64,000 nt of DNA from Dehalococcoidia bacterium. GTDB lineage: Bacteria; Chloroflexota; Dehalococcoidia; Plut-88900. A program made the position numbers and the translations under genes. Numbering within the stretch: the stretch's first letter is position 1; every line of letters starts with the position of its first letter. Of this stretch, positions 5,354 to 58,279 are shown one piece after another. The DNA lies in the NCBI GenBank assembly GCA_963668115.1, contig OY764147.1:456345-520344 (forward strand), read 5' to 3'. The notes under the pieces are model-generated. The model was not told the origin of the DNA, did not search any database, and saw only the letters and a list, made by a program, of their open reading frames with translations.

Positions 5354-6319
5354 TCAGGCAGGCAGTTCCCGCTGGACCGTTCGGCGGTCTGGGTTGTCAA
5401 AATAGACACATTCGGATAGAAGGTCGCCGTCCTGCGCGCCGGCTTCTGCGATTTCGATATGCTGACGGGTAAACGACTTGTACGGGAACGCCCCCTTCCC
5501 ATACTGCTCTTCACCGAACTCAAGGGTCTTTGCCCGCTGCAGGTCGTAGTGTGATGCCAGATCAACAAAACGCATTACGTAAGCAGCACGCCTGGGAAGG
5601 GGTCCCTCGCCGAGCATTACGCTTCGATGAATCACGTTTTTGTTGAACAGGAGCGCATCGCCGGGTTGGAAATCGTCTTCGACCTGATGACTTTCGAGTA
5701 TATCCATGGTCGGGTGCGCATTGAAGATTGACCCGCGCATCTTGAAGTAGTCGGTCACGCTCGTACTGATTCCGGCTCGCTCTTTGGCCTTCAAAGTAGA
5801 GACGATGGCCGGATCGAACTGGTAGGCGTAATTGCCTGATAGAACGTTTTCGGATACATAAGCCATCCCGCCCCGCTGCCCCTTCGCATCCACAGGTTGC
5901 AGCGGCACCCATAACGTGCATGCGAATTCTTCCGCGACTTGGAACCCGAAACTCTGTATGCCGACATGCCAGGAAAGTCCCTTGTCGACGTTCTTGCTGA
6001 GTTCAAAGCATATTTCGAAGGTCAGAAAGAGGTCATGGTCGACGATATCCGTGAGAGAACGACGGAAAAAGGGCCTTTCCATCAATTGATATACGTGTTC
6101 CTTTTCAGTCTCAAAGTCATACTTCGATCGAGTAAACCTCGAAGTGACCTGTATGTTGCTGACCACCCCTCGATCCATTTCGGCATCTACACGATTGAGT
6201 AAGAAGTCGACCGCGGCAGGGTTGAAAAACCCTTCCAACTTGATGAAGCCGTCGCGCCGGAATTGCTCTTTGTGCTCCCGGGTGACAGTAAATTCATTAT
6301 CGAAGGGATGGCTGCTCAT
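5354..6319 (-). CDS. Phytanoyl-CoA dioxygenase (PhyH) family Fe(II)/2-oxoglutarate oxygenase
   Basis: The tracked 462-aa ORF has a spurious N-terminal extension. The start was placed at ATG 6317-6319 (MSSHPFDNEF), preceded by GGGAGAAAG. The gene is noticeably lower in GC than its neighbours. Confidence 0.7.
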   Translation of the reverse strand: MSSHPFDNEFTVTREHKEQFRRDGFIKLEGFFNPAAVDFLLNRVDAEMDRGVVSNIQVTSRFTRSKYDFETEKEHVYQLMERPFFRRSLTDIVDHDLFLTFEICFELSKNVDKGLSWHVGIQSFGFQVAEEFACTLWVPLQPVDAKGQRGGMAYVSENVLSGNYAYQFDPAIVSTLKAKERAGISTSVTDYFKMRGSIFNAHPTMDILESHQVEDDFQPGDALLFNKNVIHRSVMLGEGPLPRRAAYVMRFVDLASHYDLQRAKTLEFGEEQYGKGAFPYKSFTRQHIEIAEAGAQDGDLLSECVYFDNPDRRTVQRELPA

Positions 6320-32237: not shown

Positions 32238-33008
32238 GGGGTGGACCTATATCCGAGTGCGACCCCTACCAGGCGATAGGGGTCACCGGTGGGGATGGTA
32301 GCACAGGGAGTGGGACAAGTCTACCAGGGGGGCCGGTTCGGGTGGGTCGGCGACCCGGCGGGTTATCCGGTCCTCCTGGGGGCGGCTATTCGGTTGTGGG
32401 GTTTCGTTTTCGGGTTTTCTGTTTTGGAGGGGTCGGCGATGGGAGACGCCCAGTGGGACAAGGCCCCTGTTCCTGTCGGAGCAGTTTTTCGGGCGCCCAG
32501 GGTCGGGCGCAGGTTCAAGCGCCTGCCACGGGGCCCGGAGTGTCAATGGCTATGACAGCCAAGGCGCTCCCAGGGTGAGGGGAAAAGGGACAAAACGTGA
32601 TGTTATGGAACAGGACGGGACAAAGATGGGATCCAGGGCGTCTATCCATCGCCTAGATGGTCAGGGAAGGGCCACGGGCGCCCCGATGGTGAGGGGACAA
32701 CGTCCCTGTCCGCCTGAGGCGGATGTACCAGCTTGTGCCTAGGGCCTGCGCGTGGGCCTTTGGGATGGGCTGGGGCGTTGAGTCCTCGGGGTCGGGTCTC
32801 GGGGACTTCCCTGGGTTTCTGGTTCCTCCTTGTGTTACTGAATTAGTGTTCGCGAACGCAGGGTATGATAACGCCTTTGCTCAGGTGTGTCAAGCAAATG
32901 TACGTGTATTGGGGGATACGCGAGGGGTTGGCCGGCGTGGGCCGCCCCCCGCCCCAGGGTACCCACGAGGGGCACCCCTACGGGGGAGGGGACACCCCAC
33001 CGCGCCCC

Positions 33009-33095
33009 GCGGGATGGATTTACGCCAATGGCGCATCTTCGACCCGATCGGGGCCGGAATGACGGCAAGGGATGGGTGGGGATGATGGGGGGGTG
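33009..33095. repeat. Intergenic repeat copy R3 (module A with internal palindromic insertion plus module B GGGGATGATGGGGGGG)
   Basis: GGGATGGATT…CGGGGCCGGAATGACGG…GGGGATGATGGGGGGG. Direct orientation relative to R4. Contains CGCCAATGGCG palindrome. Confidence 0.55.
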
Positions 33096-33236
33096 TCTGA
33101 ACTGTGATGCATGGGATTGAGGGATTGGTTTGATTTGTTGGGAGTGGTGGGGGTGGGTTGACGGTTAATCTAAACTTGGCGGTACGCCGGAGGTGCATCA
33201 AGGACATTTACGACCCTCCAAAGGCGGGTCTTTGAC

Positions 33237-34697
33237 ATGGCTGAAGCGAATTTTGTGGACAAGACGATCTGGACGGGGGACAACCTCGATATTTTGAGGG
33301 GGTTGAACTCCGATTGCGTGGACATGATATATCTCGATCCGCCGTTCAATTCCAACCGGAACTACGCTGCTCCGGTCGGGTCACGGGCGGCGGGGGCGGC
33401 GTTCAAGGATACGTGGACGCTGTCCGACCTGGACACGGCATGGATGGGGTTGATTGCGGACGAACAGCCGGCGATGTACAAGGTGATAGAGACGGCGGGG
33501 CTGACGCACGGAAAGGGGATGCAGTCTTACCTGTGCATGATGGCGGTGCGGCTGGTTGAGATGCGGCGGGTGCTGAGGGACACAGGGTCAATATATCTGC
33601 ACTGTGACCCGACGGCATCGCACTATCTGAAGATGCTGATGGACTCGATATTTGGAGCGGGACTATTCAAGGCAGAGATCAATTGGCAAAGGACATCCGC
33701 TCATAGTGACTCGCGCACCTTTGGTAATGTGAGTGACAAGCTTTTGTTTTACAGTGCGACCTCCATAAATGCAGATGCAATTCGTACTCCCTTAAATCCT
33801 GATTACGTAAAAAGTCACTACCGATATACCGATAAACGTGGGCGCTATCAAGACGATAATTTGACTGGCCCTAGCCACGGGTCTCCACCTGGCAGTCCTG
33901 GTACACAACCTTGGCGTGAGTACGATCCGACTTCTATCAACCGCATTTGGTCGGTTCCAAAAACAGGAAGATACGCCACCTGGATTGACCACAACATCAT
34001 TCCGGGATATCTGAAAATGGAGAGCATATTTGATCGCTTAGATGCTTTGGAGCAAGCCGACATGCTCATCCATACTGAAAGAGGTCTCGTACCACGACTT
34101 AAACGGTATTCGCAGGCTAGTCTTGGTCAAGTTCCTAGCAACAACTGGACTGACATTTCCCCAATCAACTCCCAAGCTAAAGAGCGCACAGGCTATCCCA
34201 CCCAAAAGCCCCTTGCCCTGTTAGAGCGGATTATCTCGGCGTCTTCCAATCCGAGCGATGTGGTGCTGGACCCGTTTTGCGGGTGCGCAACAGCCTGTGT
34301 GGCGGCGGAGAAACTGGGAAGGAAATGGGTGGGGATAGACATTTCGCCAAAGGCCGTCGAATTGGTGAATATGCGGTTGCGGAAGTTCATGGGGGACTTG
34401 TTCCACGAACGGTTGGTGACGGCCCGGACAGACATACCGCGTCGGACGGACATATTGGTCCCGATTCCGTATCGGAAGCAGAAGCACGTACTGTTTGGTC
34501 GGCAGGAGGGGAGGTGTGCGGGGTGCAAGTATGAGTTCCCGTTCAGGATTTTAGAGGTGGACCACGTGATACCGAGGAGTAGGGGAGGGTCGGACCACCT
34601 GGACAATTTGCAACTGCTGTGTCCTAACTGCAATCGGATCAAAGGTGATAGGGAGATGTCGTACCTGATGGCTCGGTTGAAGGAGAGGGTGGGGTAG
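33237..34697 (+). CDS. Beta-class N6-adenine/N4-cytosine DNA methyltransferase fused to a C-terminal HNH endonuclease domain
   Basis: Motif IV DPPF near the N-terminus, motif I (VLDPFCGCATACVAAEKLG) near residue 370, then CxxC…HVIPRSRGGSDHLDNLQLLCPNCN HNH. The central part (~33650-34200) is markedly AT-richer. Confidence 0.85.
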   Translation: MAEANFVDKTIWTGDNLDILRGLNSDCVDMIYLDPPFNSNRNYAAPVGSRAAGAAFKDTWTLSDLDTAWMGLIADEQPAMYKVIETAGLTHGKGMQSYLCMMAVRLVEMRRVLRDTGSIYLHCDPTASHYLKMLMDSIFGAGLFKAEINWQRTSAHSDSRTFGNVSDKLLFYSATSINADAIRTPLNPDYVKSHYRYTDKRGRYQDDNLTGPSHGSPPGSPGTQPWREYDPTSINRIWSVPKTGRYATWIDHNIIPGYLKMESIFDRLDALEQADMLIHTERGLVPRLKRYSQASLGQVPSNNWTDISPINSQAKERTGYPTQKPLALLERIISASSNPSDVVLDPFCGCATACVAAEKLGRKWVGIDISPKAVELVNMRLRKFMGDLFHERLVTARTDIPRRTDILVPIPYRKQKHVLFGRQEGRCAGCKYEFPFRILEVDHVIPRSRGGSDHLDNLQLLCPNCNRIKGDREMSYLMARLKERVG

Positions 34698-34707
34698 GGG
34701 GAGGAGG

Positions 34708-35715
34708 TTACGAGCCTGGACCTTCACCTATACGGGCGATAATCCTGTTCTTCAATTCACTACGCAGGTCCTCTGGGGTATCCCAAACGATGTGTGCATA
34801 TTGGCGTGTGTCAAAGTGTAGCTTGTCTATCATGTCATTGCGGCAAGTGTATATGACTGGAATGCCTAGACCATGAGCAAAACCCGCCTCAAAATAAACT
34901 CCACCTCTAGCACCGCCTTCCCCGTGGGTAAAGTCAGCAACCAAAAATCGGGAGCGTCGAATTTCAGCAATTATTTCATCATCAATCTTGTCTATGTCCG
35001 GCTTCTGGTCAATTCTAAGTGGATTATATCCTGCGTCCTTAATGGCTAGTCTGACACCATTGTCAAATGCCTCGTCCATACTGTCATCAAGCCACATGGC
35101 AACAAAGGCTTGAGCAGAATCCAGATTTATCTTTTGCTCTGCAATGCGGCGGTACCCGGATACCGTGAGCCCGCCATGGAACAACCCATTCACAAGCCTC
35201 TGTCCCCGTATCCATCTCATCTCCTCCAAATAGTCGAGCAAATATACGACCTCACCCCATTCAACCGATTCTGACCACGCAAACGCTCCATAGGATTCCT
35301 GCTGAATCTCTACAACAGTTGCTATTGTTGTTGCGTGTCTTTCGATGAATCGAAGGAGTCTATCGGCACGTTGCTCAACTGGTATGGGAGGCTCCTTTCT
35401 AGCTTGTTCTACGAGCTGCGTATCGACAAGTGGCCATCTTACTCCTTGTTCTAGTTGATCAAGAATGATAGTAGTTATCTTCGCTCTTAGTTTCCCGTTA
35501 ACGGTACTGCCTTTGAGATCAAATTCTGCCCCAACAGCAACTGCGTAAGGCCCTCCAACGCGAGGGGAGTCCTCGATAAGTGTCCGACGTCTCCGGAAGT
35601 CGTATGAAACTGTGGCTTGAAAGTCTGGCCATATCTGACATTGGTCTTGCGGCACTTTAAACCTCGTTATTGCTTCTCTCAGAAATCTTGAGCTATCTGC
35701 AGCTTGACCTTTCAA
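34708..35715 (-). CDS. Two-domain protein: unknown N-terminal domain plus C-terminal nucleoside 2-deoxyribosyltransferase/TIR-like (flavodoxin-fold) domain; candidate defence effector
   Basis: The C-terminal ~130 aa (AFVAMWLDD…FLVADFT…GVYFEAGFAHGLGIPVIY) resembles the NDT/TIR-like catalytic-Glu motif. Low GC. Convergent with the MTase-HNH gene. TTG start. Confidence 0.45.
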   Translation of the reverse strand: MKGQAADSSRFLREAITRFKVPQDQCQIWPDFQATVSYDFRRRRTLIEDSPRVGGPYAVAVGAEFDLKGSTVNGKLRAKITTIILDQLEQGVRWPLVDTQLVEQARKEPPIPVEQRADRLLRFIERHATTIATVVEIQQESYGAFAWSESVEWGEVVYLLDYLEEMRWIRGQRLVNGLFHGGLTVSGYRRIAEQKINLDSAQAFVAMWLDDSMDEAFDNGVRLAIKDAGYNPLRIDQKPDIDKIDDEIIAEIRRSRFLVADFTHGEGGARGGVYFEAGFAHGLGIPVIYTCRNDMIDKLHFDTRQYAHIVWDTPEDLRSELKNRIIARIGEGPGS

Positions 35716-35803
35716 ATGGTCACAACCTACATTAGTAAATTATATCCTCGAACTCTTGAGAACCTAAGCGTGGTTACATGTGGGCCAGCCCCGCCCCGTC
35801 ACC

Positions 35804-35880
35804 GGGGATGGATTCCCGACTACTCGGGAATGACGGAGTAACGGGAGTGGGGATGATGGGGGTGGGGGGTGGGGGGAGGT
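35804..35880. repeat. Intergenic repeat copy R4 (module A GGGGATGGATTCCCGACTACTCGGGAATGACGG plus module B GGGGATGATGGGGGTGG)
   Basis: Perfect stem ATTCCCGA/TCGGGAAT. Same orientation as R3, so together they bracket the low-GC cassette. Confidence 0.6.
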
Positions 35881-36039
35881 TGTTGGGGTAGGGGTGAGGG
35901 TTATTCTACGGTGTGTATGTTAGGATACGCGCAGGTTTGAGCCATAGCGGAGGCCAGAGATTACTACGACAACGCAGGCGGTGATTTCGGGGGAGGCGGG
36001 TGAGCCGACCCGGCGGGCTATCTGAAAACCCTCCAACAA

Positions 36040-36330
36040 GTGCACTCTCAGTTGGCCGAGGGTGAATTCGTCTTTTCTCGCCACGCCCTAATCCGAATGG
36101 CTGACAGGAACATTTCTGATCTGGAGATCAGGCAGGCCGGAAGACAGGCCACCGTTATAGAAGAGTATCCTGCCGACAAATACTCGCCAAGCTGTCTTCT
36201 CCTAGGGTTCACTGATGCCGGCAGACCGCTTCATATTCAAGTTTCTCTGGCCGATACAAAGAACGTGAGAATAGTTACACTCTATGAACCAAACCCCGAA
36301 GAATGGGTTGGGCTTTCCATGAGGAGGTAA
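36040..36330 (+). CDS. DUF4258-family putative toxin
   Basis: 96-aa ORF (…FSRHALIRMADRNIS…) of the DUF4258 type. Immediately followed by a zinc-ribbon antitoxin-like gene. Confidence 0.5.
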   Translation: MHSQLAEGEFVFSRHALIRMADRNISDLEIRQAGRQATVIEEYPADKYSPSCLLLGFTDAGRPLHIQVSLADTKNVRIVTLYEPNPEEWVGLSMRR

Positions 36331-36332
36331 AG

Positions 36333-36575
36333 ATGTCCGAATGCTCTGTGTGCAACGCCCGGGAAATCCGCGAAGAGCCGGTTGATGAGGTGTTCCACGT
36401 CGATGGGCGGTGGGTGTTGGTCGGGGGGATTCCGGCTTTGGTGTGCGGCAGGTGTGGGGAACAGTCATTCAGCCGGGAGGCCGCGGAGAAAGTCCGGCTG
36501 ATGGTGCACGGGGAAGCCAAGGCGACAACATCGGTTTCGATGCAGGTGTACGATTTTGCATCATCAGCGTCGTGA
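36333..36575 (+). CDS. YgiT/MqsA-type zinc-ribbon protein (putative antitoxin)
   Basis: MSECSVCNAREIREE…LVCGRCGEQSFS has the CxxC…CxxC YgiT-type zinc finger. ATG 36333 after GAGGAGG. Overlaps the toxin stop. Confidence 0.55.
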   Translation: MSECSVCNAREIREEPVDEVFHVDGRWVLVGGIPALVCGRCGEQSFSREAAEKVRLMVHGEAKATTSVSMQVYDFASSAS

Positions 36576-36632
36576 CGCGTATGGCGCCGAATGGCACAAC
36601 AGCACACTTCGAGAATTGAGGGGAGTAGAAGT

Positions 36633-37961
36633 ATGTCGCAGTTGAGGGTTGTACATTACCTGAACCAGTTTTTTGCGGGGATCGGCGGGGAGGATAAGGC
36701 GGATACGGCCCCGGGGTCGGAGGGCCGACCGCTGGGGCCGGGGAATGCCCTTAATCAGGCGCTGACTTCTTCGGAGGAAGGGGAGGTGGTGGCGACGGTG
36801 TATTGCGGGGACACGTATTTCACCGAGAACCAGGAGGAAGCGCTGGGCCGGATCGTGGAGCTGGTGCGGGAGTCGGGGGCGGAGGTGCTGGTGGCGGGGC
36901 CGGCGTTTGGGTCGGGTCGGTACGGGCTGGCGTGCGCGCAGGTGTGCCAGAGGGTCGGGTCTGCGCTGGGGATTCCGGTTGTTACGGGGATGCACCCTGC
37001 AAACCCGGGGGCGGAGCAGTACAGGGGACAGGTGTACATGGCTTCGACTTCGGATACGGCAGTGGGGATGGGGGCGGCGATCGAGGTGATGGCTAAGCTG
37101 GCAGTGAAGCTGGGTCGGGGGGAGGAGCTGGGGCCTGCGGACGAGGACGGGTATATTCCGACGGGTCGGGTGAAGACGCAGGTACACGAGAAGACGATGG
37201 CGCAGAGGCTTGTCGACATGGTGCTGAAGAAGGTGAACGGAGAGCCCTTCGAGACGGAATGGCCGCTGCCTTCGATGGAGAAGATAGAACCGGCACCGGC
37301 GATAGGGTCGGTGGCCGGGGCGAGGATAGCGCTGGTGACGGAGGGGGGAGTGGTGCCTCGGGGGAACCCGGACAAGATCCCGAGCGGTTGGGCGAAGCAC
37401 TGGGCGCGTTATGACATCGGCGAGGTGTCGGACTTCACCCCCGATAAGTGGCAATCCGTACACGGCGGCTTCGACACCACCAAGCTGAATGAAGATCCCG
37501 ACAGGGTCCTTCCCCTCGATGTGATGCGGGAACTGGAGGAGGAGAAGGCCATAGGCAAGATCCACGAGTACATGTATTCCACCGTAGGGAATATTGGCTA
37601 CGTGGCGGACATGAAGCGGTTCGGAGAGGACATAGCGGCGGAACTGCAGGCGGCGGGGGTGCAGGGGGTGATCCTGACGGGGACCTGAGGCACGGGCACG
37701 CGTAGCGGGGCTACGCTGGCGAAGGAGCTGGAGAGGGCAGGGCTGCCGACGGCATTTATCACGGCGATGGTGCCACTGGCGCAGAGCATCGGGGCGAACC
37801 GGATTGTGCAGGGGAAAGCGGTGACGACGACGACGGGTGATCCTGCGCTGCCGCCGGATGAGGAGAAGGCCTTCAGGCGTCGGCTGGTGGAACGGGCGCT
37901 AAAGTCGCTGGAGTCGACACCCGAGGGGCAGGAGGTGGTGTGGGGGGAGGACCGGGGCTAG
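36633..37961 (+). CDS. GrdB-family (glycine/sarcosine/betaine reductase protein B-like) selenoprotein with in-frame UGA (Sec) at 37686-37688
   Basis: N-terminus MSQLRVVHYLNQFFAGIGGEDKAD. The ORF track splits it at TGA (..VILTGT*GTGTRSGATLAKELE..). The downstream frame continues with GLPTAFITAMVPLAQSIGANRIV…GDPALPPDEEKAFRRRLVERAL, typical of the GrdB C-terminus. A hairpin GCGTAGC-ggg-GCTACGC lies 11 nt after the UGA. Confidence 0.6.
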
Positions 37962-39496
37962 ACGGCGACGCGCTCCAGGTCTTTCAGAATCGCCTTTGCG
38001 GCGTTGTGACCCGGAGCGCCTGTGATCTCGCCGCCGGGGTGGGTGCCTGAGCCGCACATGTAGAAGCGGTCGATGGTCGAGCGGTAGGGCATGCGGCCGG
38101 AGAATATCTGCTTACTGGTGATGTCTATGTGGCGGATGTTGCCGTCGGTGAGGAACTGACGGATTTCAATGTCCTCGGGGGTCTGGAGGGTCCAGTCGAC
38201 GATGGACTCACGGAAGTTGGGGGCGTAGGTTGTGAGGATGTCGATCAGCTTTTCTCCAACTTTCGGTCCCTCGACATCCCACGAACCTTCCTTGAGCTCG
38301 GCGGGAGCGTAGAGGGTCCACGCGGAGAGGACGTGATGGCCGGGTGGGGTCAACGACTTGTCGTAGATTGAGGGCATCTGGACGTTCATCACGGGGCAGC
38401 TGGATGGGTAGCCGTTCTTGGCGTCGTCCCAACTCTGCTGGAAGTACTCGACGGAGGGGCAGATGCGGAAGTAGGCGGTGAGCCGGGGGTCGTAGCCTTC
38501 GCCGAGGTAGCTGCTGAAGTCGGGGAGCTCACGGAGGGCGACGAGGAGCTTGACGCAGTTGGCACGGGTGGTGAGGCCGTCGACCTTGGACCTGGTGGCG
38601 GGGTCGACGTCTGCGGAGTCGACGAGGTCATTGTAGGTGCGCTTGGGGTCGGCGTTGGAGACGACCATGAAGCTCCTGATCTCCTCGCCGTTTTCGAGTC
38701 GGACGCCGACGGCCGCGCCGTTCTCGACGATCAACTTGTCGACGACGGTGTTGAGTCGGATCTCGACGCCGAGGGACTCGGCGTAGCGGGCCATGGAGAA
38801 GGGGAGCTGGCTCATGCCGCCGCGGGGGATGCCGTAGTTCTCGGGCTTGGTGAAGGCGTTGACCCGGAGGTAGGCGAGGCTGAGGATGCTGCCGGGGGCG
38901 CTCGGGTCACCGGCGTCCTGGGCGTCGATGAAGTGGGCCTTGACCTGGGGGTGCTCGAAATGCTGGTCGACGAGGTCCCTCATGCTGACGGTGAGCATGG
39001 TCTCCCAAACTTCCTCGTCGCTGGTGCCTCGGACGTCCTGGTAGACCTCGGCGATGGTCGGGGGTTCGCGGAACCAGTACCTGTGGAGGATAGCGGAGGC
39101 CCGCTCCCAGAAGCTGGCCCACTCCGGGAAGGCCTGGGCGTCCTTTTCGGAGAAGCGGGCCAACTCCCGGGCGTTCTTGTGGTTTTCCCGGTAGGTCATG
39201 ATGTAGTTGCCGTCCGGGAAGGGGTCGAAGCGGAAGGTGGTGAAGGGGATGATGTCGAGGCCGTTGTCACGCAGCTTGAGGTCGTCGATGACCCGGCCCT
39301 GCATGATGTGGAGGATGTAGGCGCAGTACGGAATGTTGAAGCCGGGGGCGAGTTCGTCGGTCACCACGGCTCCGCCGACCATCTCAAGGCGCTCCAATAC
39401 GAGGACCTTCAGGCCCTCCTGGGCGAGGTAACCGGCGGTGACGAGGCCGTTGTGCCCGGCCCCGATGATGATGGCGTCGTACTGGTGCTGCTGCAT
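37958..39496 (-). CDS. Phytoene desaturase-family FAD-dependent oxidoreductase (CrtI-like)
   Basis: N-terminal YDAIIIGAGHNGLVTAGYLAQEGLKVLVLE dinucleotide-binding motif. 512 aa. Confidence 0.8.
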   Translation of the reverse strand: MQQHQYDAIIIGAGHNGLVTAGYLAQEGLKVLVLERLEMVGGAVVTDELAPGFNIPYCAYILHIMQGRVIDDLKLRDNGLDIIPFTTFRFDPFPDGNYIMTYRENHKNARELARFSEKDAQAFPEWASFWERASAILHRYWFREPPTIAEVYQDVRGTSDEEVWETMLTVSMRDLVDQHFEHPQVKAHFIDAQDAGDPSAPGSILSLAYLRVNAFTKPENYGIPRGGMSQLPFSMARYAESLGVEIRLNTVVDKLIVENGAAVGVRLENGEEIRSFMVVSNADPKRTYNDLVDSADVDPATRSKVDGLTTRANCVKLLVALRELPDFSSYLGEGYDPRLTAYFRICPSVEYFQQSWDDAKNGYPSSCPVMNVQMPSIYDKSLTPPGHHVLSAWTLYAPAELKEGSWDVEGPKVGEKLIDILTTYAPNFRESIVDWTLQTPEDIEIRQFLTDGNIRHIDITSKQIFSGRMPYRSTIDRFYMCGSGTHPGGEITGAPGHNAAKAILKDLERVAV

Positions 39497-44318: not shown

Positions 44319-45641
44319 GCGTTGGCCTCGAAGGCGCCTGAATCGGCGCAGCGGGTCAGTTTTTCCCGAACGAGGGCCGACATATATTCGCGAATCCGGG
44401 TGTCGGGGGCGAGGGAGAGGACGGCCTCTGCGAAGCCGTAGGTCAGGATGCGTCGGGACTGGGCAGGGCCGATTCCACGGCTGGCGAGGTAGAAGATGGC
44501 CTCTTCGTCCAGCTGGCCTACGGTGGCCCCGTGGGAGCATTTGAGGTCGTCGGCGAAGATTTCAAGCTGGGGCTTGGTGTCGACCATGGAGCGATCGGAG
44601 AGGAGGAGGTTGTTGTTGGTCTGATGGGCGTCGACCTGGTGGGTGCCGCGTCGGGCGATGATCTTGCCGTTGAAGACGGCTCTTGCATTGTCGGTGAGTA
44701 CGCCCTTGTAGAGCTGCCGGCTGGGTGTGAAGGATGCGGTGTGGTCGACGGAAGTGTGGTTGTCGACGTGGCCGTTAGCCGAGGCGACGTAGAGGCCGTT
44801 CATGGTGCACTCGGCGCCCTCGCCTTCAAGAGTAACCGACAGGTCGTTGCGGGCGATTCTTGCACCGAGGTCGAGGGTGAAGGAGGTGAAGGCGCTGTCT
44901 CGGGCGAGGGTGACGTTTGTCGTGGATACGTGGTAGGCCTCGGGGCCTTCTTCCTGGACCTTGTACCAGGCGAGCCGGGCACCCTCTTCAATGCACGATG
45001 TTGGTTACGGCGTTGGTCAGGCAGACACCTTCGCCGCCGGCGTAGTGCTCGAGAACCGTTGCGGTGGCGCCCTTTTCGATGATGATGAGGTTGCGGGGTG
45101 GGCCATGGAGGGGGTGGGGGCTTGTTCAGCGAGGAAGGAGAGGAGCATCGGGGTTGAGACGTTAGCGCCAGCGGGAACCCTGATGAAGCCGCCGTCCTCA
45201 AGGAAAGCCCTGTTCAGGGCCACGAAGCCGTTGGAGACGTGGGCAGGATTGCCCGACAGATGGGCTTCTATTGCCTTTGGGAAAACGCGAATGGCGCGGG
45301 CGAGGCTCGTTACTTCGAACGGACCGGCATCGTCTTCCAAACCGACGCTGGAAGCGTACTTCCCGCCGACGAACCGGAGCCCGGGAAGGTCCAGTGAAGA
45401 TATCGAAGAACCAGCGTAATCTCCGGCCCGGGCCAGGGTGAAGCGCTGCCTGGCTATGGGGGCGACGTTGGTGTATTTCCAGTCCTCGTCGCGGGTGGTA
45501 GGGAAGCCGAGGGACTCGAACTCCCGGAAGGGCGTCGCGCCTGAGGGATTGCAGCCAATCGGGTGCGGAGCCCTCATCCCGAGCCTGGAGGGCTTCGAAC
45601 TCGCTAACGAAGGAGTGTTCGCTGCTGCGGACTTGTACCAA
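44315..45641 (-). pseudogene. sufD: Fe-S assembly protein SufD interrupted by three 1-nt homopolymer indels
   Basis: SufD-like segments lie in three frames. N-terminus (..APDWLQSLRRDAL) to +1 C at ~45525, then (..REFESLGFPTTRDEDWKYT…LLSFLAEQAP) to -1 C at ~45096, then (HPRNLIIIEKGATATV…TNIV) to +1 T at ~44990, then (EEGARLAWYKVQEEG…) to the end. Confidence 0.75.
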
Positions 45642-51144: not shown

Positions 51145-51600
51145 ATGTCACTACGCGAACAGCTGGATGCAGACCTGCTGGAGGCGGTGCGCAGCAAGGA
51201 TGGACTGAAGCGCTCCGCCTTACGTCTTATTAAGGCCAGTGTGCAGTCGGAGGAGAAATCCCGGGGCAAAGAGCTGGGGGACGACGATGTGGTGCAGGTG
51301 TTGTCCCGGGAGGCGAAGCGGCGCAGGGAGAGCATTACTGCGTTCCGGGACGGCAACAGGCCCGACCTGGTGGAGAAAGAGGAGGCTGAGCTAGCGATCC
51401 TTACAAAGTACCTGCCTCAACAGCTAACTGAAGATGAAGTGAGGGAGATAGCGCGGTTGGTGATTGAGGAAGTTGGTGCGTCGGGGCCCGGGGAGCGGGG
51501 CAAGGTGATGGGGCGGCTCATGCCTCAGGTCAAGGGTAAGGCGGATGGGAAGATGGTGAACCAGATAGTGGGGGAGTTGCTGGCTGGTAAGTCGGGTTGA
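51145..51600 (+). CDS. GatB/YqeY-domain protein
   Basis: 151 aa. Conserved rpsU-yqeY synteny. Confidence 0.8.
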   Translation: MSLREQLDADLLEAVRSKDGLKRSALRLIKASVQSEEKSRGKELGDDDVVQVLSREAKRRRESITAFRDGNRPDLVEKEEAELAILTKYLPQQLTEDEVREIARLVIEEVGASGPGERGKVMGRLMPQVKGKADGKMVNQIVGELLAGKSG

Positions 51601-51620
51601 GAAATATGAATTCGGGTGAA

Positions 51621-51671
51621 GGGGCCCGGGCCTGGGTTATGACTGACTCGGGGCCCGGGTCTTGTTTTTTG
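51621..51671 (+). terminator. Rho-independent terminator (GGGGCCCGGG stem plus T-tract)
   Basis: Palindromic GCCCGGGC arms followed by CTTGTTTTTTG. Confidence 0.55.
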
Positions 51672-51700
51672 TTGGAAGGGCAGCTTCAAAAGGAACGTCG

Positions 51701-52396
51701 ATGAAATTCGGAGTAGTTGTATTTCCAGGGACGTGGAGCGACGTGGACTGCTATCACGTTCTGGAGGAGGTCATGGGGCAGGAGGTGAGCTACGTCTGGC
51801 ACAAGGAAACGGACCTTTCTTCCTACGATTGCGTCGTCCTGCCGGGCGGGTTTTCGTACGGGGACTACTTGAGGTGTGGGGCCATTGCGCGGTTCTCGCC
51901 AGTGATGGAGGCGGTGGTGGACTTTGCGGGGCGGGGAGGGGCGGTGATAGGGATATGCAACGGTTTCCAGGTGCTGTGCGAGTCGGGGCTGCTGCCGGGG
52001 GCCTTGTTGAGGAACGAGAGCCTGGAGTTCCGGTGCCAGTGGGTGAACCTGCGGGTCGACAATACGGACACGACGTTTACAAGGAATTGCGGGTCGGGGC
52101 AGGTGATCCGGGTGCCGATATCTCATGGTGAGGGGCGGTACTACGCGGACGATTCGACGCTCCGGACCTTGGAGGAAGAGGGTCGGGTGCTTTTCCGGTA
52201 TTGCACTGATGATGGTGAGGTGACGCCGGATTCGAATCCCAACGGTTCCCTGAATGGGATAGCGGGCATAGCGAACCGGGAGGGAAATGTACTGGGGATG
52301 ATGCCGCACCCGGAGAGATGCTGCGAGCCTTTGCTCGGGGGGACGGACGGTTTGTATGTGTTCGAGTCGATTGTCGACTCATTCACCAAAACGTGA
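51701..52396 (+). CDS. purQ: Phosphoribosylformylglycinamidine synthase I (glutaminase subunit)
   Basis: [11 protein letters not shown]…, catalytic Cys (GICNGFQ) and HPE triad. The tracked ORF has a 13-aa upstream extension. Confidence 0.9.
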
Positions 52397-52447
52397 TTGC
52401 TTTTCCGCGCTAAACTCTCTGCATGAATCCCGAAGAAAACCTTCCCA

Positions 52448-53303
52448 ATGCATCCGGCTGACGCGCCATTGAGGGAAGGTGACCCTCCAGGCTTCTGCCG
52501 GGTTTGTGGTCTTCAATTGTTCCCTAGTTGGCGTTTTTGCACGCGCTGCGGATCGTTGGTACATCCAGGGGTGGCTCATTCTCAAGAGGGAGGGGTAGAC
52601 GAAGCGGCTCTGGTTTGGCGGGATGGGGTGGGGTGGGGGGTGCGGGATGTGGCGCTGGGGACGGGTTTCTATGTAATCCAGGCGATATCGATACTGGCGA
52701 TTGTCCTAGTCGTGGCCCGGGTGGTGGATGTTGAGTACACGGGTGTTCCGCTACTTGTGGGTATGTTGCTGGTCCAGCTTGCTCTCCCGTTGACTGTGTG
52801 GATTTTCGTTGTGCTGAGGCGCAAGGTCCGTTGGAGCGCTCTAGGGTTGTGGAGATGGCCGGCGTGGAGGGATGTGGGGTGGGGGGATTGTGGTGCTGAT
52901 AGCGGAAATAGCAGTGCAGGTGGCCTACTACGTAGTTCTGGAGAGGGCGGGTGTAGACACGGAAGACCTATCGCCGACGCCTTTCGTTGAGGCGGGCAGC
53001 GAATACCTGATAGGGCTGGCTATTCTGGCGGTTGTGGTGGCACCCATTGCAGAGGAGCTGTTCTTCAGGGCGTTTGTGTTTCGGGGGCTGGCGGGGAGGT
53101 GGGGATTCTGGTGGGCGGGGGGTGTCAGTTCCCTGCTTTTCATGGCGGCGCACCTGGAACCGCTCAGTTTCCCGCCGCTCTTCGTATTGGGGTTGCTGCT
53201 GGCCTGGCTTTATCATAGAACCCGAGCATTGTGGGCACCGATGCTGGTGCACTTTGGGAACAATGCGATAGCGGTTGGTGTGCTACTTGCCGATGTCTAC
53301 TAA
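52448..53303 (+). pseudogene. CPBP-family (CAAX/Abi) intramembrane protease with N-terminal zinc ribbon, frameshifted at a poly-G run
   Basis: N-terminal part in frame 1 (CRVCG…CTRCG, TM helices). C-terminal part (EELFFRAF…FMAAHLE…HFGNN) in the +1 frame from 52872. The junction is at GGGGGG 52881-52886. Confidence 0.6.
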
Positions 53304-53345
53304 CGAAACTACAAGACAAGAACGACGTTTTATCCAAGGAGCGAC

Positions 53346-55547
53346 ATGCCAATAAACAGGGAAGCCTTGGACCAATTGGCTGTCTCCGATGAGGAGTACT
53401 CTCTGGCCGTGGACAAGCTCGGGCGGGAGCCGAACCTGGTGGAGCTGGGGATAATCGGGTCCCTGTGGAGCGAACATTGCAGCTATAAGCACTCCAAGCC
53501 GTTGTTGAGGATGTTCCCATCGGATGGTGAGCGGGTACTGGTGGAGCCCGGTGCAGAAAATGCCGGGGCTGTGGACATTGGGGATGGGTTGGCGGCGGTA
53601 ATGAAAATCGAGTCGCACAACCACCCGTCGGCGATTGAGCCGTACCAGGGGGCGGCGACAGGGGTGGGGGGGATAGTGCGGGATATTTTCACGATGGGTG
53701 CGAGACCCATTGCCTTGCTAAACTCGCTGAGGTTCGGGCCGCCGGACACGGCGCGTAACCGCTACCTGTTCAACGGGGTAGTGGGGGGCATAAGCGGATA
53801 TGGGAACTGCCTCGGGATACCGAACGTCGGGGGGGAGGTTGTGTTTTCGCCGACGTATTCGGGGAACCCGCTAGTGAATGCGATGTGCGTCGGGCTGGTG
53901 AAGATTGATGGACTGCTAAAGGCGCGGGCGGAGGGGACTGGCAACCTGATCTTGCTGGTGGGCGCCGACACGGGTAGAGATGGTATTCACGGGGCCTCGG
54001 GGCTGGCTTCCCGGACGTTCGAGGAGGAGAGAGAGTTGAGGCCGACGGTGCAGGTCGGGAACCCATTCCTGGAGAAGGTGCTTATCGAGGCCTGCCTCGA
54101 ATTATCGGATTCTGGTTTGCTGGTGGGGCTGGCCGACTTGGGGGCGGCGGGCCTGACGAGTGCGGTCGTGGAAAGTGCGGGTCGGGCGGGGAGCGGGGTG
54201 GATATAGACGTAGGTCGGGTGCCGCGTCGGGAGGAGGGGATGACGCCTTACGAGGTCATGCTCTCCGAGTCCCAGGAACGGATGTTGCTAATCGTTGCGC
54301 CTGAGAATAAGCCGTCAGTCGATGAGATAACCAAGAAATGGGACTTGCACTCGGATGTGATTGGTCGGGTGACGGATGACGGCCGGGTGAGAATTCGAGA
54401 CGACGAGGAACTGGTGGCCGATCTGCCTGTGAGTGTGCTGACAGATGCACCACAGTACAGAATTGACGGGAAGAAGCCTGAGGCTCTTTCGGAATTGCAG
54501 GACTTTGACTTCGATACGCTGCCGTTGCCTGAGGAGGGGGCGGAGTCGGTGCTGTTAAGACTCCTGGCTTCGCCGAATGTGGCGAGCAAGGAGTCGGTGT
54601 TCAGGCAATATGATCACCAAGTGATGACGAACACCGTGATACCGCCGGGGAACGACGCAGCGCTGATAAGGGTGAAGGGGACCAAGAAGGCAATATCACT
54701 CTCGACGGATGGGAATGGCCGGTTCTGCTACCTGAACCCGTTTGCGGGGGGTGCGATTGCGGTGGCGGAGGCATCCCGGAATGCTGCGTGTGTCGGGGCA
54801 CGAGGGATAGCGGTGACCGACTGCCTGAACTTCGGCAACCCTGAGAAGCCGGAGGTGTACTACCAGTTAGAGGAGTGCATACGGGGGATGACGGAGGCCT
54901 GCAAGGCCTTTGGCATGCCGGTGATAAGCGGGAACGTCAGCCTGTACAACGAAACGATGGATGAACCCGTATACCCGACTCCCGTGGCGGGGGTGTTGGG
55001 CCTCCTGGAGGACGTATCCCAAGCTTGCGGTATGGGGTTCAGGAATGAAGGTGACGTGGTGCTGCTCCTGGGGCCCGCGCCCAGTGCTACGGGGCTGGGC
55101 GGGAGTGAATACTTGGAAGCAGTCCACGAGAAAGTGGCGGGGAAGCCCTCGATAGACCTGGACATGGAAAAACGGGTGCAGGAGTTGTGCGTAACGCTAA
55201 TAGAGGGAGGGATGCTGAATTCGGCGCACGACTGCTCGATGGGGGGGCTTACCGTTGCGCTAGCGCTTTGTGCGATCAAGGGAGAAATCGGGGTAGAGTG
55301 CGAGATTGGAGCGGAGGGGCGGTGGGATGCGGTGCTGTTTGGGGAGGTGCAGTCGCGGATCGTGGTCTCGGTTAGGCCTGGAAATGTTGAGAGGGTCAAA
55401 GAGTTGGCCGAGGAGGCTCGGGTGCCGGTGACAGGGCTGGGGGTGGTGGGGGGAGAACGGTTCAGGGTCGGACTCGACATCGATCTGTCCTTGAATCAAA
55501 TCACAGAGAGATGGAGAAACGGGCTGGCTGACGCCATGAAACAGTGA
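53346..55547 (+). CDS. purL: Phosphoribosylformylglycinamidine synthase II
   Basis: 733 aa with a conserved PurL core. Confidence 0.95.
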
Positions 55548-55655
55548 TGTTTTCATCGGGCGCCGTCCTTGTCCCATTCCTCCAGCGTTATATAATTGCC
55601 CTTGGGGTGGAAGCCCTACAGACATCGCCAAAATTGAACGTCTACAGAAAGGTTC

Positions 55656-56855
55656 GTGGCCGAAGTGAGAGTGATATTCCTTGAAGAAGTTGAGAATGTC
55701 GCCAAGGCCGGCGACGTAAGAGAAGTCAAGAACGGATACGCCCGAAACTACCTTTTCCCGAAGCAGCTGGCAGTGTTAGCCACGCAGGACCAGATGCGTC
55801 GGGTGGAGGCGTTGAAGCGAGCTGAGGCACTGAGACAGAACAATGCCGAGGCCCGCGCCGCGCTGCTGGGGCCCAAGCTAGAAGGGCTGTCTGTTTCCCT
55901 GGAGGCTCGGAGCGGTCCGACGGGACGGCTTTATGGGTCCATCAATGCGTCGGCGGTGGCGAAGGCGATTTCGGAGGCGGTGAGTGAGGATGTCGGGGCT
56001 CGGGATGTGCTGCTGGAAGAGCCTATCAAGGCTGTCGGGAGTTACGAGGTGACTATGGGGCTTGGTGCGGAGGTTGAGCCGGTGATCAGGGTGGAGGTTG
56101 TCGAGGCTGAGCCGGCCAAGCCGACGACCAAGCGCAAGGCGAGGGGGTCGAAGGTGCGGGAGGTAGTAGCAGAGGCGGAAGCGGTAGTTGAAGAGGCCGC
56201 CGTAACTGAGGCGGTTGAAGAAACCGCTGTCGTCGATGAAGTGGAAGAGGCTCCTGCTTCGGAGGTGGTCGAAGAGGCAGTTGCTGCCGAATCAACAGAA
56301 GCATCCGCTGAGGTAGAGGAGGCTCCCATCGCCGAAGATGAAGCAACGGCCGAGTCTGGGGTTGTTGAAGAGGTCCCTGTTGTTGAGGTAGAAGAAGAGA
56401 CCGTTATTGCGGAAGCGGAAGGAGCGGTTGCCGAAGCGGAGGAGGTGGACGACACAACTGCCGAAGAGGAAGCACCGGAGGCAGTGGCCGTTGCGGAGAC
56501 TCCGGAAGAGGCCCCTGTTGCCGAAGAAGAGTCCGTGGCCGAAGCTGAGGTAGTAGAAGACGCATCTCCTGCTGAAGAAGCAGTTGAGGAAACCGTTGCT
56601 GAAGTAGCGGAGGAGGCCCCGACTGCCGAGGTAGTAGAAGAAGCCGCGGTCAGTGATGAGGTGGAAGAGGAGACCGAAGCAGCGGAGGAAGAGGCCCCTA
56701 TAGAGGAGACTGCCGAGGCGGAGGCAGTGGTGGATGAGGAAACGGGTGAGGAGGAGGCTGCTTCGGCTGAGGGGAAGGCGCAGTCGGCGAGGGAGTCGGC
56801 GGCGGCTGCGGCGGTGCGGCGGGCGAAACGCAGACAGCAACAGGCCGAGCAGTAG
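55656..56855 (+). CDS. rplI: 50S ribosomal protein L9 with a ~250-aa acidic low-complexity C-terminal extension
   Basis: The first ~150 aa are canonical L9 (MAEVRVIFLEEVENVAKAGDVREVKNGYARNYLFP…), followed by an E/A/V-rich repeat region and a basic tail RRAKRRQQQAEQ. GTG start. Confidence 0.8.
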   Translation: MAEVRVIFLEEVENVAKAGDVREVKNGYARNYLFPKQLAVLATQDQMRRVEALKRAEALRQNNAEARAALLGPKLEGLSVSLEARSGPTGRLYGSINASAVAKAISEAVSEDVGARDVLLEEPIKAVGSYEVTMGLGAEVEPVIRVEVVEAEPAKPTTKRKARGSKVREVVAEAEAVVEEAAVTEAVEETAVVDEVEEAPASEVVEEAVAAESTEASAEVEEAPIAEDEATAESGVVEEVPVVEVEEETVIAEAEGAVAEAEEVDDTTAEEEAPEAVAVAETPEEAPVAEEESVAEAEVVEDASPAEEAVEETVAEVAEEAPTAEVVEEAAVSDEVEEETEAAEEEAPIEETAEAEAVVDEETGEEEAASAEGKAQSARESAAAAAVRRAKRRQQQAEQ

Positions 56856-56905
56856 TTAAACGCCAAGTAGTCGGGGGAGGCGTCCGGTTGGGTGTCGGGG
56901 GATGA

Positions 56906-58279
56906 ATGTACGCGGAAAAGCTGCCGCCACATGATATAGATGCAGAGGACTCGGTATTGGGGTCGCTACTCATCAACGGAGAAGCGATAACCGAAGTCGC
57001 GCCGGACCTTGACGCCGACGATTTCTACCGGGAGTCGAACCGGTGGTGCTACGAGGCCTGCGTAGACCTCTACAACAGGGGTGTGCCGATAGACCAGGTC
57101 TCTGTTGAGAATGAGCTAAACCGAAGGGAGCGCCTGGCCAATATGGGCGGAGGTGCTTACCTGAGCCACCTCGTCACGGTGGTGCCTACGTCAGTGCACA
57201 TAAAGGCGTATGCAGGCATTGTGCGAAGGTTGGCGACGATGCGGCGCATCATTGAGTCGGCAGGGCAGATATCGAAGATCGGGTATGATGCGGGCCCCGA
57301 CGAGGACGCTGCGCTTAGCCGGGCCGAAGACATCCTGTTCAAACTGAGGAGCGGGCAGAGGTCCCGGGACTTCGTACATATACAGGAGATCCTAGACGAA
57401 TACCTGGAAGAGGGTGGTACGTTCAGTAGAGATGAAGGAGAAGGGCCCCTTTCGGTTGCATTAACGGGGTTTCACAATCTGGACACTCTGCTGGGGGGAC
57501 TGCACCGGTCAGACCTGATCATATTGGCGGCAAGGCCGAGCTTGGGGAAGAGCAGCTTGGCGTTAAACATTACACGGACTGCGGCTTTGGACCAGGGGGC
57601 ACGGGTGGCAGTGTTCAGTCTAGAGATGAACAGAGAGCAAGTGGTGCAGCGCTTGCTTTCCAGCGAGTCGGGAGTGGATACAAGGAATTTTAGACTTGAT
57701 GAATCAGGACTTCAGAAGTTCACGGAGGAAGAATCTGCTAGAGTCGTAGACGCAACCGGTAAGTTGGGTGGTGCGCAAATCTATATAGATGACTCTCCTA
57801 ACCTTAATATAGTCGAGCTTCGGAGCAAGGCAAGAAGGCTTCACCTGGAACAGCCCGTCGACCTGATAATCGTGGACTACATGGGGCTGATGCTTCAACG
57901 GGGAGATAACAATGTCGCGGAGATGAGCGAGATATCGAGGTCACTGAAGCTGTTGGCCAGAGACTTAAATGTTCCTCTTCTGGCGTTGTCGCAGCTGAGT
58001 CGTGCGCCGGAGCTCAGGCAAGACCACAAGCCGATGCTCTCGGACTTGAGGGAAAGCGGTAGCATCGAGCAGGATGCGGACGTGGTGATGTTCATCTACA
58101 AGGCAGACCGTTACTACACGGAGCAGCAATGGGGGAAGCTGTACCCCGACGAGATGTACCCCAAGGGAATAGCGGACATCATCGTCGGGAAGCACCGGAA
58201 CGGGCCTACGGGGACGATACAGTTGCGGTTCGTTGACCATTTGGCGAAGTTCGAGCCGCTGCCGGTGGGCGTGGCTTAG
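56906..58279 (+). CDS. dnaB: Replicative DNA helicase
   Basis: 457 aa with Walker A GKSS and conserved rplI-dnaB synteny. Confidence 0.95.
   Translation: MYAEKLPPHDIDAEDSVLGSLLINGEAITEVAPDLDADDFYRESNRWCYEACVDLYNRGVPIDQVSVENELNRRERLANMGGGAYLSHLVTVVPTSVHIKAYAGIVRRLATMRRIIESAGQISKIGYDAGPDEDAALSRAEDILFKLRSGQRSRDFVHIQEILDEYLEEGGTFSRDEGEGPLSVALTGFHNLDTLLGGLHRSDLIILAARPSLGKSSLALNITRTAALDQGARVAVFSLEMNREQVVQRLLSSESGVDTRNFRLDESGLQKFTEEESARVVDATGKLGGAQIYIDDSPNLNIVELRSKARRLHLEQPVDLIIVDYMGLMLQRGDNNVAEMSEISRSLKLLARDLNVPLLALSQLSRAPELRQDHKPMLSDLRESGSIEQDADVVMFIYKADRYYTEQQWGKLYPDEMYPKGIADIIVGKHRNGPTGTIQLRFVDHLAKFEPLPVGVA

Follow-up and report, generated by a model that had tools for sequence, protein, structure and literature searches.

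The locus described here raises the question of whether a GrdB-like gene divided by an in-frame TGA encodes a selenoprotein and, if so, what such a protein does at a distance from any glycine reductase operon. It lies in a 64,000-nucleotide (nt) stretch of DNA from a Dehalococcoidia bacterium (contig OY764147.1, positions 456,345 to 520,344 of the forward strand), which is called the window below and to which all coordinates refer. An earlier note, made from the letters of the window, had placed two open reading frames (ORFs), at 36591-37688 and 37767-37961, in the same frame and separated by the TGA at 37686-37688. The sequence bore this out. A single plus-strand frame runs from the ATG at 36633 through 351 codons, the TGA at 37686-37688 and 90 sense codons to a TAG at 37959-37961, and the peptides quoted in the note (ILTGT-*-GTGTRSGATLAKELE, GANRIV and GDPALPPDEE) were all present in the joined translation. 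Our analysis indicates that this is almost certainly a real gene of the GrdB family decoded with selenocysteine (Sec). The following features were assigned to it:

36633..37961, plus strand: complete selenoprotein gene of the GrdB/GrdF/GrdH/PrdB 'selenoprotein B' family, 442 residues counting Sec
37686..37688, plus strand: in-frame TGA, predicted Sec residue 352, in the motif LTGT-U-GTGTRSGAT; the TGA is common to all 80 GTDB relatives
37689..37958, plus strand: 90 codons after Sec, the conserved C-terminal part (GANRIV, GDPxL, EE..RR..VE..L), with length and sequence kept in relatives
37689..37726, plus strand: predicted selenocysteine insertion sequence (SECIS) element within the coding sequence, stem 37700-37706/37710-37716, apical loop GGG at 37707-37709
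36618..36625, plus strand: Shine-Dalgarno-like GAGGGGAG, 7 nt 5' of the ATG at 36633, read from the sequence
36547..36554, plus strand: candidate -10 region TGTACGAT, proposed from an alignment of the upstream region with relatives

Translation of the UGA codon

One genome per GTDB species was scanned for relatives of the gene, which yielded 80 loci (numbered with an L below). The homologous codon was TGA in 80 of 80 loci. A conserved tail of 84-92 residues continues the frame after it, except on contigs that ended early or contained frameshifts. In the protein alignment, the natural homolog P0080 carried cysteine at the Sec column. The earlier note had asked for an alignment to confirm that the Sec falls on the catalytic column of the family and had allowed that homologs with a sense codon and no conserved Cys or Sec would speak against it; the 80 TGA codons and the cysteine of P0080 support this placement.

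The ratio of nonsynonymous to synonymous substitution rates (dN/dS) against loci L002-L004 was 0.06-0.09 for the codons preceding the TGA and 0.05-0.07 for those following it. Against L001 and L005-L009, which are 83-85% identical, synonymous sites after the TGA were saturated (proportion of synonymous differences, pS, 0.76-0.85), with a proportion of nonsynonymous differences (pN) of 0.04. TGA served as an ordinary stop in 4 of the 15 other Pfam-supported genes of the window, and the organism therefore uses the standard genetic code. The conserved TGA and tail, the purifying selection and the TGA stops elsewhere together speak so strongly against a true stop, a pseudogene or a change of code that we regard all three as excluded. 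We conclude from these comparisons that the UGA at 37686-37688 is translated and not used as a stop.

The gene is likely to start at 36633 rather than at 36591, because homologs open with M-x-x-L-R-V-V-H-Y and because the Shine-Dalgarno-like GAGGGGAG precedes that ATG. A TGTATACT box resembling an extended -10 region was conserved about 65 nt 5' of the start in L002-L009 (the relatives keeping the box are also given as nine), and sequence further upstream was unrelated. The TGTACGAT of the window occupies the position of this box and falls within the end of an MqsA-like ORF; a simple sigma-70 scan did not call it at 36547..36554. The arrangement suggests that the selenoprotein gene has its own promoter.

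In one locus of the set, L012 (Chloroflexi metagenome-assembled genome [MAG] contig JACQUR010000419.1, about 5800-5860), the grdB homolog has a TAG at the codon for the invariant Tyr of HYLNQF. This N-terminal in-frame stop was considered as a second Sec or recoding site and rejected, as the codon is a TAG at Tyr9; it is probably a sequencing error or the mark of a pseudogene.

The SECIS hairpin

A hairpin with a perfect 7-bp stem (GCGTAGC-ggg-GCTACGC) was found at 37700-37716, starting 11 nt after the TGA, as the earlier note had described. The 11-nt spacing and the small G-containing apical loop fit the minimal SECIS of E. coli fdhF. They also fit the bacterial SECIS features given in PMC1088965. 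The window has 60% G+C. On its plus strand, 57 hairpins with a perfect 7-bp stem were counted, and such a hairpin starts 8-20 nt downstream of 5 among the 1130 TGA triplets, so that the chance of such a hairpin for a given TGA is roughly 0.5-1%. Taken alone, the hairpin is weak evidence; the comparison across homologs lifts it above chance.

For this comparison, the 48 nt from the TGA were aligned in 77 distinct homologous sequences, with no gaps needed and the stem in columns 15-21/25-31. Standard pairs filled 96.3% of the stem cells. Three pairs covaried (15-31, 18-28 and 19-27), and none of 500 column shuffles matched the observed covariation. The outermost pair 15-31 was U-A in 42 sequences and G-C in 15; pair 18-28 was U-A in 63, C-G in 13 and A-U in 1; and pair 19-27 was U-A in 59, A-U in 13 and G-C in 4. 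Pairing was lost when the partner strand was slid by 1-3 columns. The covariation crosses the coding constraint: where Ser AGC or Gly GGC replaces Cys TGC after Arg, the Ala codon opposite is GCT or GCC instead of GCA, a synonymous change at the third base.

The window element aligned with all 38 positions of the Rfam model SECIS_4 (RF01990) at 21.6 bits (E 0.005), and classical grdB loci matched the same model at 52-65 bits at the same position after the UGA. A search of the whole window at Rfam gathering thresholds gave no match, the SECIS being seen only with an E-value threshold. Like SECIS_4, the element starts right after the UGA and has a stem of 6-7 bp and a GGN loop. It differs from the model in a stem pair that is A-U (AGC Ser/GCU Ala) instead of U-A (UGC Cys/GCA Ala) and in its G-rich flanks. 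The covariation in 77 sequences and the full-length alignment with the model establish the hairpin, by comparison, as the conserved SECIS of the family and a divergent member of SECIS_4, in agreement with the SECIS-like role first proposed for it.

Membership in the selenoprotein B family

The protein matched Pfam PF07355 (GRDB) at 448.5 bits (cutoff 22, E 2.4e-134) over residues 4-351 and profile positions 2-347 of 347. The joined translation matched NCBIfam TIGR01918, the 'glycine/betaine/sarcosine/D-proline family reductase selenoprotein B' model (various_sel_PB), at 494.2 bits (cutoff 65.45) over residues 5-435 and profile positions 1-429 of 431. The TIGR01918 match spans nearly the whole joined protein, and the part after the TGA is therefore part of the same protein. 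The GrdB layout read from the joined translation in the earlier note is thus seen in both models, the N-terminal 351 residues matching the Pfam domain end to end; a mismatch of the N-terminus with the GRDB family, which the note had offered as a reason for doubt, was not observed. On these matches the protein truly belongs, as a divergent member, to a family that has long been known and already has its own curated NCBIfam model.

A database search with the protein returned thousands of relatives. Most of the best 120 entries were 347-352 residues long, that is, cut at the TGA by gene callers, and 12-13 full-length entries carried Trp at the TGA column, which is an artefact of the gene caller's choice of code. 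The miscalling as a truncated gene that the note had foreseen is therefore already common among these 120 entries, most of which stop at about residue 351, while 13 translate the TGA as Trp.

A sequence search of the PDB returned no homolog. An AlphaFold model of P0080, which is 47% identical to the window protein, was used as a structural proxy. In this model (predicted local distance difference test score 86), the Cys equivalent to Sec lies in a loop that joins a beta-strand to the N-terminal end of a helix, a predicted position that is typical of redox residues. A Foldseek comparison of the P0080 model with the PDB gave generic alpha/beta matches with template modeling scores below 0.25 and no mechanistic lead.

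Comparison with known substrate classes

The models specific for single substrates were not matched at their cutoffs. The protein scored 473.1 bits with TIGR01917 (the GrdB equivalog gly_red_sel_B; cutoff 602.2), 468.7 bits with NF040794 (GrdF, sarcosine reductase; cutoff 800) and 415.2 bits with NF040795 (GrdH, betaine reductase; cutoff 775). The match to TIGR04483 (PrdB) reached 87.6 bits (cutoff 300) and covered residues 267-429 only, and the 442-residue protein does not have the architecture of about 240 residues of PrdB. Nobu et al. 2022 (PMC9751293) gave the GrdB motif as GPxF[NF]AGRYG ... AHGGxD[QTAP] ... RV[IL]PxD ... TxGNxTxV. This pattern was passed by more than 40 Firmicutes loci of the set, which served as the positive control, and failed at three places in the window protein (GPAFGSGRYG, VHGGFDT and TVGNIGYV). 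The GrdF motif of the same study (IHGGYDR ... TTGTGT; PMC9751293) also failed. The redox motif is given as U-x-x-C-x-x-C (PMC13188914) and reads U-G-T-C-T-R-C in classical loci, whereas the window protein and its clade have U-G-T-G-T-R-S (U-x-x-G-x-x-S).

The window protein resembles GrdB of the Peptoclostridium acidaminophilum/Clostridium sticklandii type in length, domain layout and full-length hidden Markov model alignment, in the column of its Sec, which leaves about 90 residues to the C-terminal end, in a SECIS hairpin at the same place in the mRNA, and in the shared motifs YxNQFFxxxGGE, CGD, GRYG, HGGxD, GNPD and GANRI. It differs in scoring below the equivalog cutoff, in the U-x-x-G-x-x-S motif, and in having neither a grd operon nor a glycine riboswitch. 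Glycine riboswitches (RF00504, 65-74 bits) were found at about 2100-2400 on the plus strand of L013, L018, L034, L043 and L046, where they precede Firmicutes operons of the order trxB-trxA-grdE-grdA-grdB-grdC-grdD; Rfam searches of the window and of the Dehalococcoidia loci covered gave no such riboswitch. GrdF and GrdH share the family and architecture of the protein and align over their full length (469 and 415 bits), but its scores are far under their cutoffs (800 and 775) and it lacks the GrdF motif. The C-terminal Sec-containing domain (residues 267-429) is homologous to PrdB, which lacks the N-terminal 230 or so residues present here.

Identity to full-length homologs in the protein alignment was 46-50%. 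In a rough neighbor-joining tree, the window clade grouped with L010, its sister was a second Dehalococcoidia clade (L011, L019, L032 and L040), and both Dehalococcoidia clades stood apart from Firmicutes GrdB. By the model and motif comparisons, the protein falls outside the canonical subunits of glycine, sarcosine and betaine reductases. Because all three specific models failed and both cysteines of U-x-x-C-x-x-C are absent, its substrate is probably not glycine, sarcosine or betaine.

Partner genes, paralogs and selenocysteine machinery

A tblastn search with Pfam-verified references detected the full grd set in classical loci and no grdE, grdA, grdC or grdD in the window or in loci L001-L009; an upstream search for a grdE remnant (E up to 10) returned noise only. 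The observation that no grdA or grdE partner adjoins the gene therefore extends to all of grdA, grdC, grdD and grdE across the 64 kb. The description of the gene as stand-alone holds locally and fails at the scale of the genome, where close relatives carry a grdB paralog with grdC, a UGA-containing grdA and grdE-like genes elsewhere. The further claim that such a gene is unexpected in this organism was too strong, as Grd genes and glycine reductases have already been reported in Dehalococcoidia (PMC9751293) and TIGR01918 names proteins of this kind.

The second Dehalococcoidia clade represents this paralog, which is about 55% identical and has the same U-x-x-G-x-x-S motif. Paralog and ortholog occur on the same sequence twice: paralog L019 and ortholog L004 (93% identical) are both on OZ220734.1, and paralog L032 and ortholog L003 (96% identical) are both on CBDBLV010000005.1. 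The paralog adjoins GrdC (NF040746, 651 bits, cutoff 450) and a grdA with an in-frame CFV-TGA-TAAGAMDL. The L011 cluster also contains two grdE-like genes and a TrxB-like reductase, in place of which the L019 cluster has a luciferase-like monooxygenase upstream. The organisms that have both paralog and ortholog therefore make at least three selenoproteins. The relevant loci are as follows:

L011:3081-9300, L019:5977-9350 and L032: compact Dehalococcoidia paralog clusters (grdB paralog, grdC and UGA-containing grdA)
L082:8690-12626 (OZ241876.1), plus strand: three tandem GrdE-family genes (432, 435 and 434 residues; PF09338)

L010 is a positional ortholog with 63% identity and the same surroundings of alcohol dehydrogenase (ADH) and suf genes, and a GrdE-family gene lies directly upstream of it. 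No grdE gene or remnant was found in the window clade or in the 74-80% identical L083 and L084; a 239-residue upstream ORF of L083 is rich in P, R and S, spurious, and without similarity to GrdE. The three GrdE-like genes of L082 lie 1.6 Mb from the grdB-like gene of that genome, the nearest to ours, and are flanked on both sides by genes for family-III coenzyme A (CoA)-transferases, of which there are four altogether. A luciferase-like oxidoreductase, a hydantoinase and amidohydrolases are encoded nearby. The L082 proteins matched the GrdG and FarE models weakly, with the Dehalococcoidia GrdE-like proteins at 96-146 bits against a FarE cutoff of 675. Among the matches listed in a GrdC search (cluster representatives), none was on OZ241876.1.

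Matches to SelD, SelA and SelB in a tblastn search were confined to Firmicutes loci, and ARAGORN called no tRNA in the window or in 15 Dehalococcoidia loci. In the genomes of L003 and L004, the second UGA gene (grdA) and the paralog are indirect evidence that Sec machinery is present.

A tRNA-Sec-shaped gene was seen at L010:2988-3077 on the plus strand (OZ240219.1), about 1.6 kb upstream of the grdE-like/grdB-like pair. It matched the full RF01852 model at 50.8 bits (gathering 47) and was not called by ARAGORN. Its product would have a 9-bp acceptor stem, a long variable arm, a weak T stem and the anticodon loop CUUAAAA, and the gene adjoins an ORF that, judged by eye, is transposase-like. 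It was rejected as selC, since its anticodon is UAA (Leu) and not UCA. It resembles what are reportedly termed 'allo-tRNAs'.

Proposed function and alternative explanations

We favor, as very probable overall, the reading that the gene encodes a selenoprotein of the protein-B family in an unusual locus, with partners encoded elsewhere. Decoding would follow bacterial Sec biology, SelB with guanosine triphosphate and Sec-tRNA(Sec) binding the GGN-loop hairpin while the ribosome stands on the UGA, so that Sec is inserted. From family membership, the product would be a substrate-specific 'protein B' selenosubunit paired with a GrdE-family subunit. Its selenol would cleave a C-N (or C-X) bond alpha to a carboxylate. 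Selenoprotein A (GrdA) would receive the carboxymethyl group, component C (GrdC) would free it as acetyl phosphate, and thioredoxin would re-reduce the system, the partners being encoded elsewhere in the genome in this lineage. This model of protein B, GrdA and GrdC is taken from the passages of PMC10838667 and PMC13188914 that summarise Andreesen 2004. According to the part of PMC10838667 that cites the same review, many bacteria have several protein-B modules that feed one GrdA/GrdCD/thioredoxin system (Andreesen 2004). FarB/FarE of Cloacibacillus, likened here by description, offers a similar case, with a GrdB-like selenoprotein that has an in-frame UGA and a SECIS and is encoded away from grdA/C/D (PMC10838667). 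FarB is thought to feed the shared reductase system with a substrate other than glycine, as a fluoroacetate reductase (PMC10838667). In contrast to the window gene, which has no such neighbors, farB shares its operon with farE and with genes for a transporter and a radical S-adenosylmethionine protein. A substrate-specific protein-B selenosubunit that uses partners encoded elsewhere is the most likely function by this analogy, and we would put its working as a protein-B module with trans-encoded partners at slightly below an even chance.

Several results weigh against this reading. The 71-nt stretch with the hairpin folds no better than shuffled sequences (z = 0.27), and its SECIS_4 score of 21.6 is below the Rfam gathering score of 38. 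No selA, selB, selD or tRNA-Sec lies within the 64-kb window. No gene or remnant of grdA, grdC or grdE was found in the window, nor within 6-10 kb in nine close relatives, and with no GrdE, GrdA or GrdC at the locus or in the loci of relatives, the pairing in trans is purely inferred. The Dehalococcoidia paralog clusters gave no grdD. The GrdE-like genes of L082 lie among CoA-transferases with no grdB, grdA or grdC there, a context unusual for GrdE homologs, and the GrdE-like proteins lack the Asn-Cys aligned to 'SGNCVSAC' of classical GrdE, reportedly the GrdE autoprocessing site. Both cysteines of the redox motif are replaced, by Gly and Ser, and therefore the chemistry after attack by selenium may differ.

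Two explanations would deny the gene a selenocysteine, and we consider both far-fetched. If the TGA were a genuine stop, the product would be a 351-residue truncated protein or the gene a pseudogene with a relic downstream; gene callers do give 351-residue products for most relatives, and a frameshifted sufD in the window indicates that sequence or gene decay occurs. Yet the part after the TGA evolves at a dN/dS of 0.05-0.07 (pN 0.04 at saturated pS), TGA and tail are kept in 80 of 80 species-level relatives, the RNA stem covaries, and P0080 has a Cys codon at the position. It is equally hard to credit that a changed genetic code or a suppressor tRNA makes the UGA specify Trp, Gly or Cys. This explanation could draw on the thirteen database entries with Trp and on the tRNA-Sec-shaped gene with a non-UCA anticodon in the related L010, but the Trp calls are artefacts of the gene caller's choice of code and the UAA anticodon of L010 cannot read UGA. 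Moreover, TGA ends 4 of 15 well-supported genes of the window, as expected of the standard code, the position is that of the family's catalytic Sec or Cys, and a conserved SECIS is needed for Sec only.

Among explanations that accept the selenocysteine, a canonical GrdB (converting glycine to acetyl phosphate and ammonia) merely located away from its operon is improbable. The best equivalog-type match is to TIGR01917 (473 bits), glycine reductases of Dehalococcoidia have been reported (PMC9751293), and a glyoxylate-aminotransferase-like gene lies 7 kb upstream; against these stand the score below the cutoff of 602, the published motif failed at three places and passed by more than 40 Firmicutes loci, U-x-x-G-x-x-S in place of U-x-x-C-x-x-C, the missing glycine riboswitch that five classical loci have, the lack of adjacent grdE, grdA, grdC, grdD or trx, and the separate Dehalococcoidia clade in the rough tree. 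It is less improbable, but still unlikely, that the protein is a self-sufficient or differently partnered selenoenzyme outside the Grd system whose likeness to protein B is ancestral only, one possibility being a thiol/selenol oxidoreductase working with the GrdE-like/CoA-transferase cluster. In its favor, ten genomes keep the gene in its orphan position and under strong purifying selection, the adjacent grdE seen in L010 has been lost, neither motif cysteine remains, and the three GrdE-like genes of the nearest genome lie among four CoA-transferase III genes and not with grdA/C. However, the paralogs beside grdC and grdA share U-x-x-G-x-x-S, so that a protein with the changed motif could still work in the Grd system; outside the motif, the protein keeps every residue that is invariant in the family; and the neighborhood offers no conserved alternative partner, the flavin adenine dinucleotide (FAD) oxidoreductase and ADHs being absent or rearranged in L010. 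The window clade might also represent an uncharacterised substrate class of protein-B selenoenzymes confined to Dehalococcoidia, with a Cys-less U-x-x-G-x-x-S motif, a monocistronic gene and dispersed GrdE-like partners among CoA-transferases. We regard this as a tentative and doubtful proposal. If it is true, the enzyme would reductively cleave a C-N or C-X bond in some compound that is not glycine, sarcosine, betaine or proline, in parallel to the recently recognised fluoroacetate reductase.

In sequence databases, this gene and the majority of its relatives appear either as fragments of 351 residues or as proteins with Trp in place of Sec, so that inventories of the selenoproteome and Grd pathway of Dehalococcoidia MAGs will count too few of them or assign them to the wrong type. 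Dehalococcoidia from soil and sediment have two or more diverged protein-B selenosubunits and several GrdE-like genes, without a match to any substrate-specific model, a hint that the substrates of the reductase family extend beyond the four or five known. With its orphan position, its Cys-less motif and the failed substrate models, the gene is a mildly interesting lead on substrate diversity, not a new kind of system, and knowledge of Sec decoding and of the Grd mechanism is unchanged by it.

Host chromosome and gene neighborhood

The closest loci are on Dehalococcoidia MAG chromosomes of 3.0-3.4 Mb, with OZ241876.1 97% identical at the protein level. The window itself is ordinary chromosome, encoding ValRS, LigA, GlnA, TrpA, LexA, MoeB, TyrRS, RibF, SufBCDS, fumarase, PurQ/L and DnaB, together with a molybdenum enzyme of the xanthine dehydrogenase type. 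Besides the glyoxylate-aminotransferase-like gene noted above, the genes nearest to the selenoprotein gene are:

33237-34697: N6/N4 DNA methylase-HNH nuclease fusion, within an insert of about 4 kb
34708-35715, minus strand: 335-residue ORF of no family, within the same insert
36040-36575: DUF4258/MqsA-like pair of the toxin-antitoxin type, within the same insert
37958-39496, minus strand: CrtO-like FAD oxidoreductase, its stop overlapping the TAG of the selenoprotein gene at 37959-37961

On the 3' side, the convergent CrtO-like FAD oxidoreductase is followed by two class-III-like Zn-ADHs and the suf operon, an order kept in L001-L009, as is the tail-to-tail arrangement with the CrtO-like gene. 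The convergent stops overlap (37958-37961), and there is therefore no intergenic room for a terminator. The FAD oxidoreductase is absent from L010. Neither this convergent gene nor the class-III-like ADHs gave a functional link to the selenoprotein gene. The 5' side is variable. The next gene in L004 is ribF, about 720 bp away with nothing between, and in the window the insert of about 4 kb (32300-36600) separates ribF from the selenoprotein gene.

The window sufD (44327-45641, minus strand) is broken. Compared with the intact 442-residue SufD of L001, residues 1-38 are in a different frame from the remainder, and the frame is also lost over about 35 codons near 45000-45110, where two stops (TGA and TAA) occur. 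Either indel errors in the assembly or a decaying gene would account for this, and it calls for caution about the sequence quality of the window.

In L001 (800-8600) and L083, the gene is immediately preceded by a block of YqeY-PurQ-(Rce1-like)-PurL-DnaB. The same block is found in the window at 51145-58279, 13-20 kb downstream of the gene, which points to an inversion or rearrangement that has one breakpoint near the selenoprotein gene.

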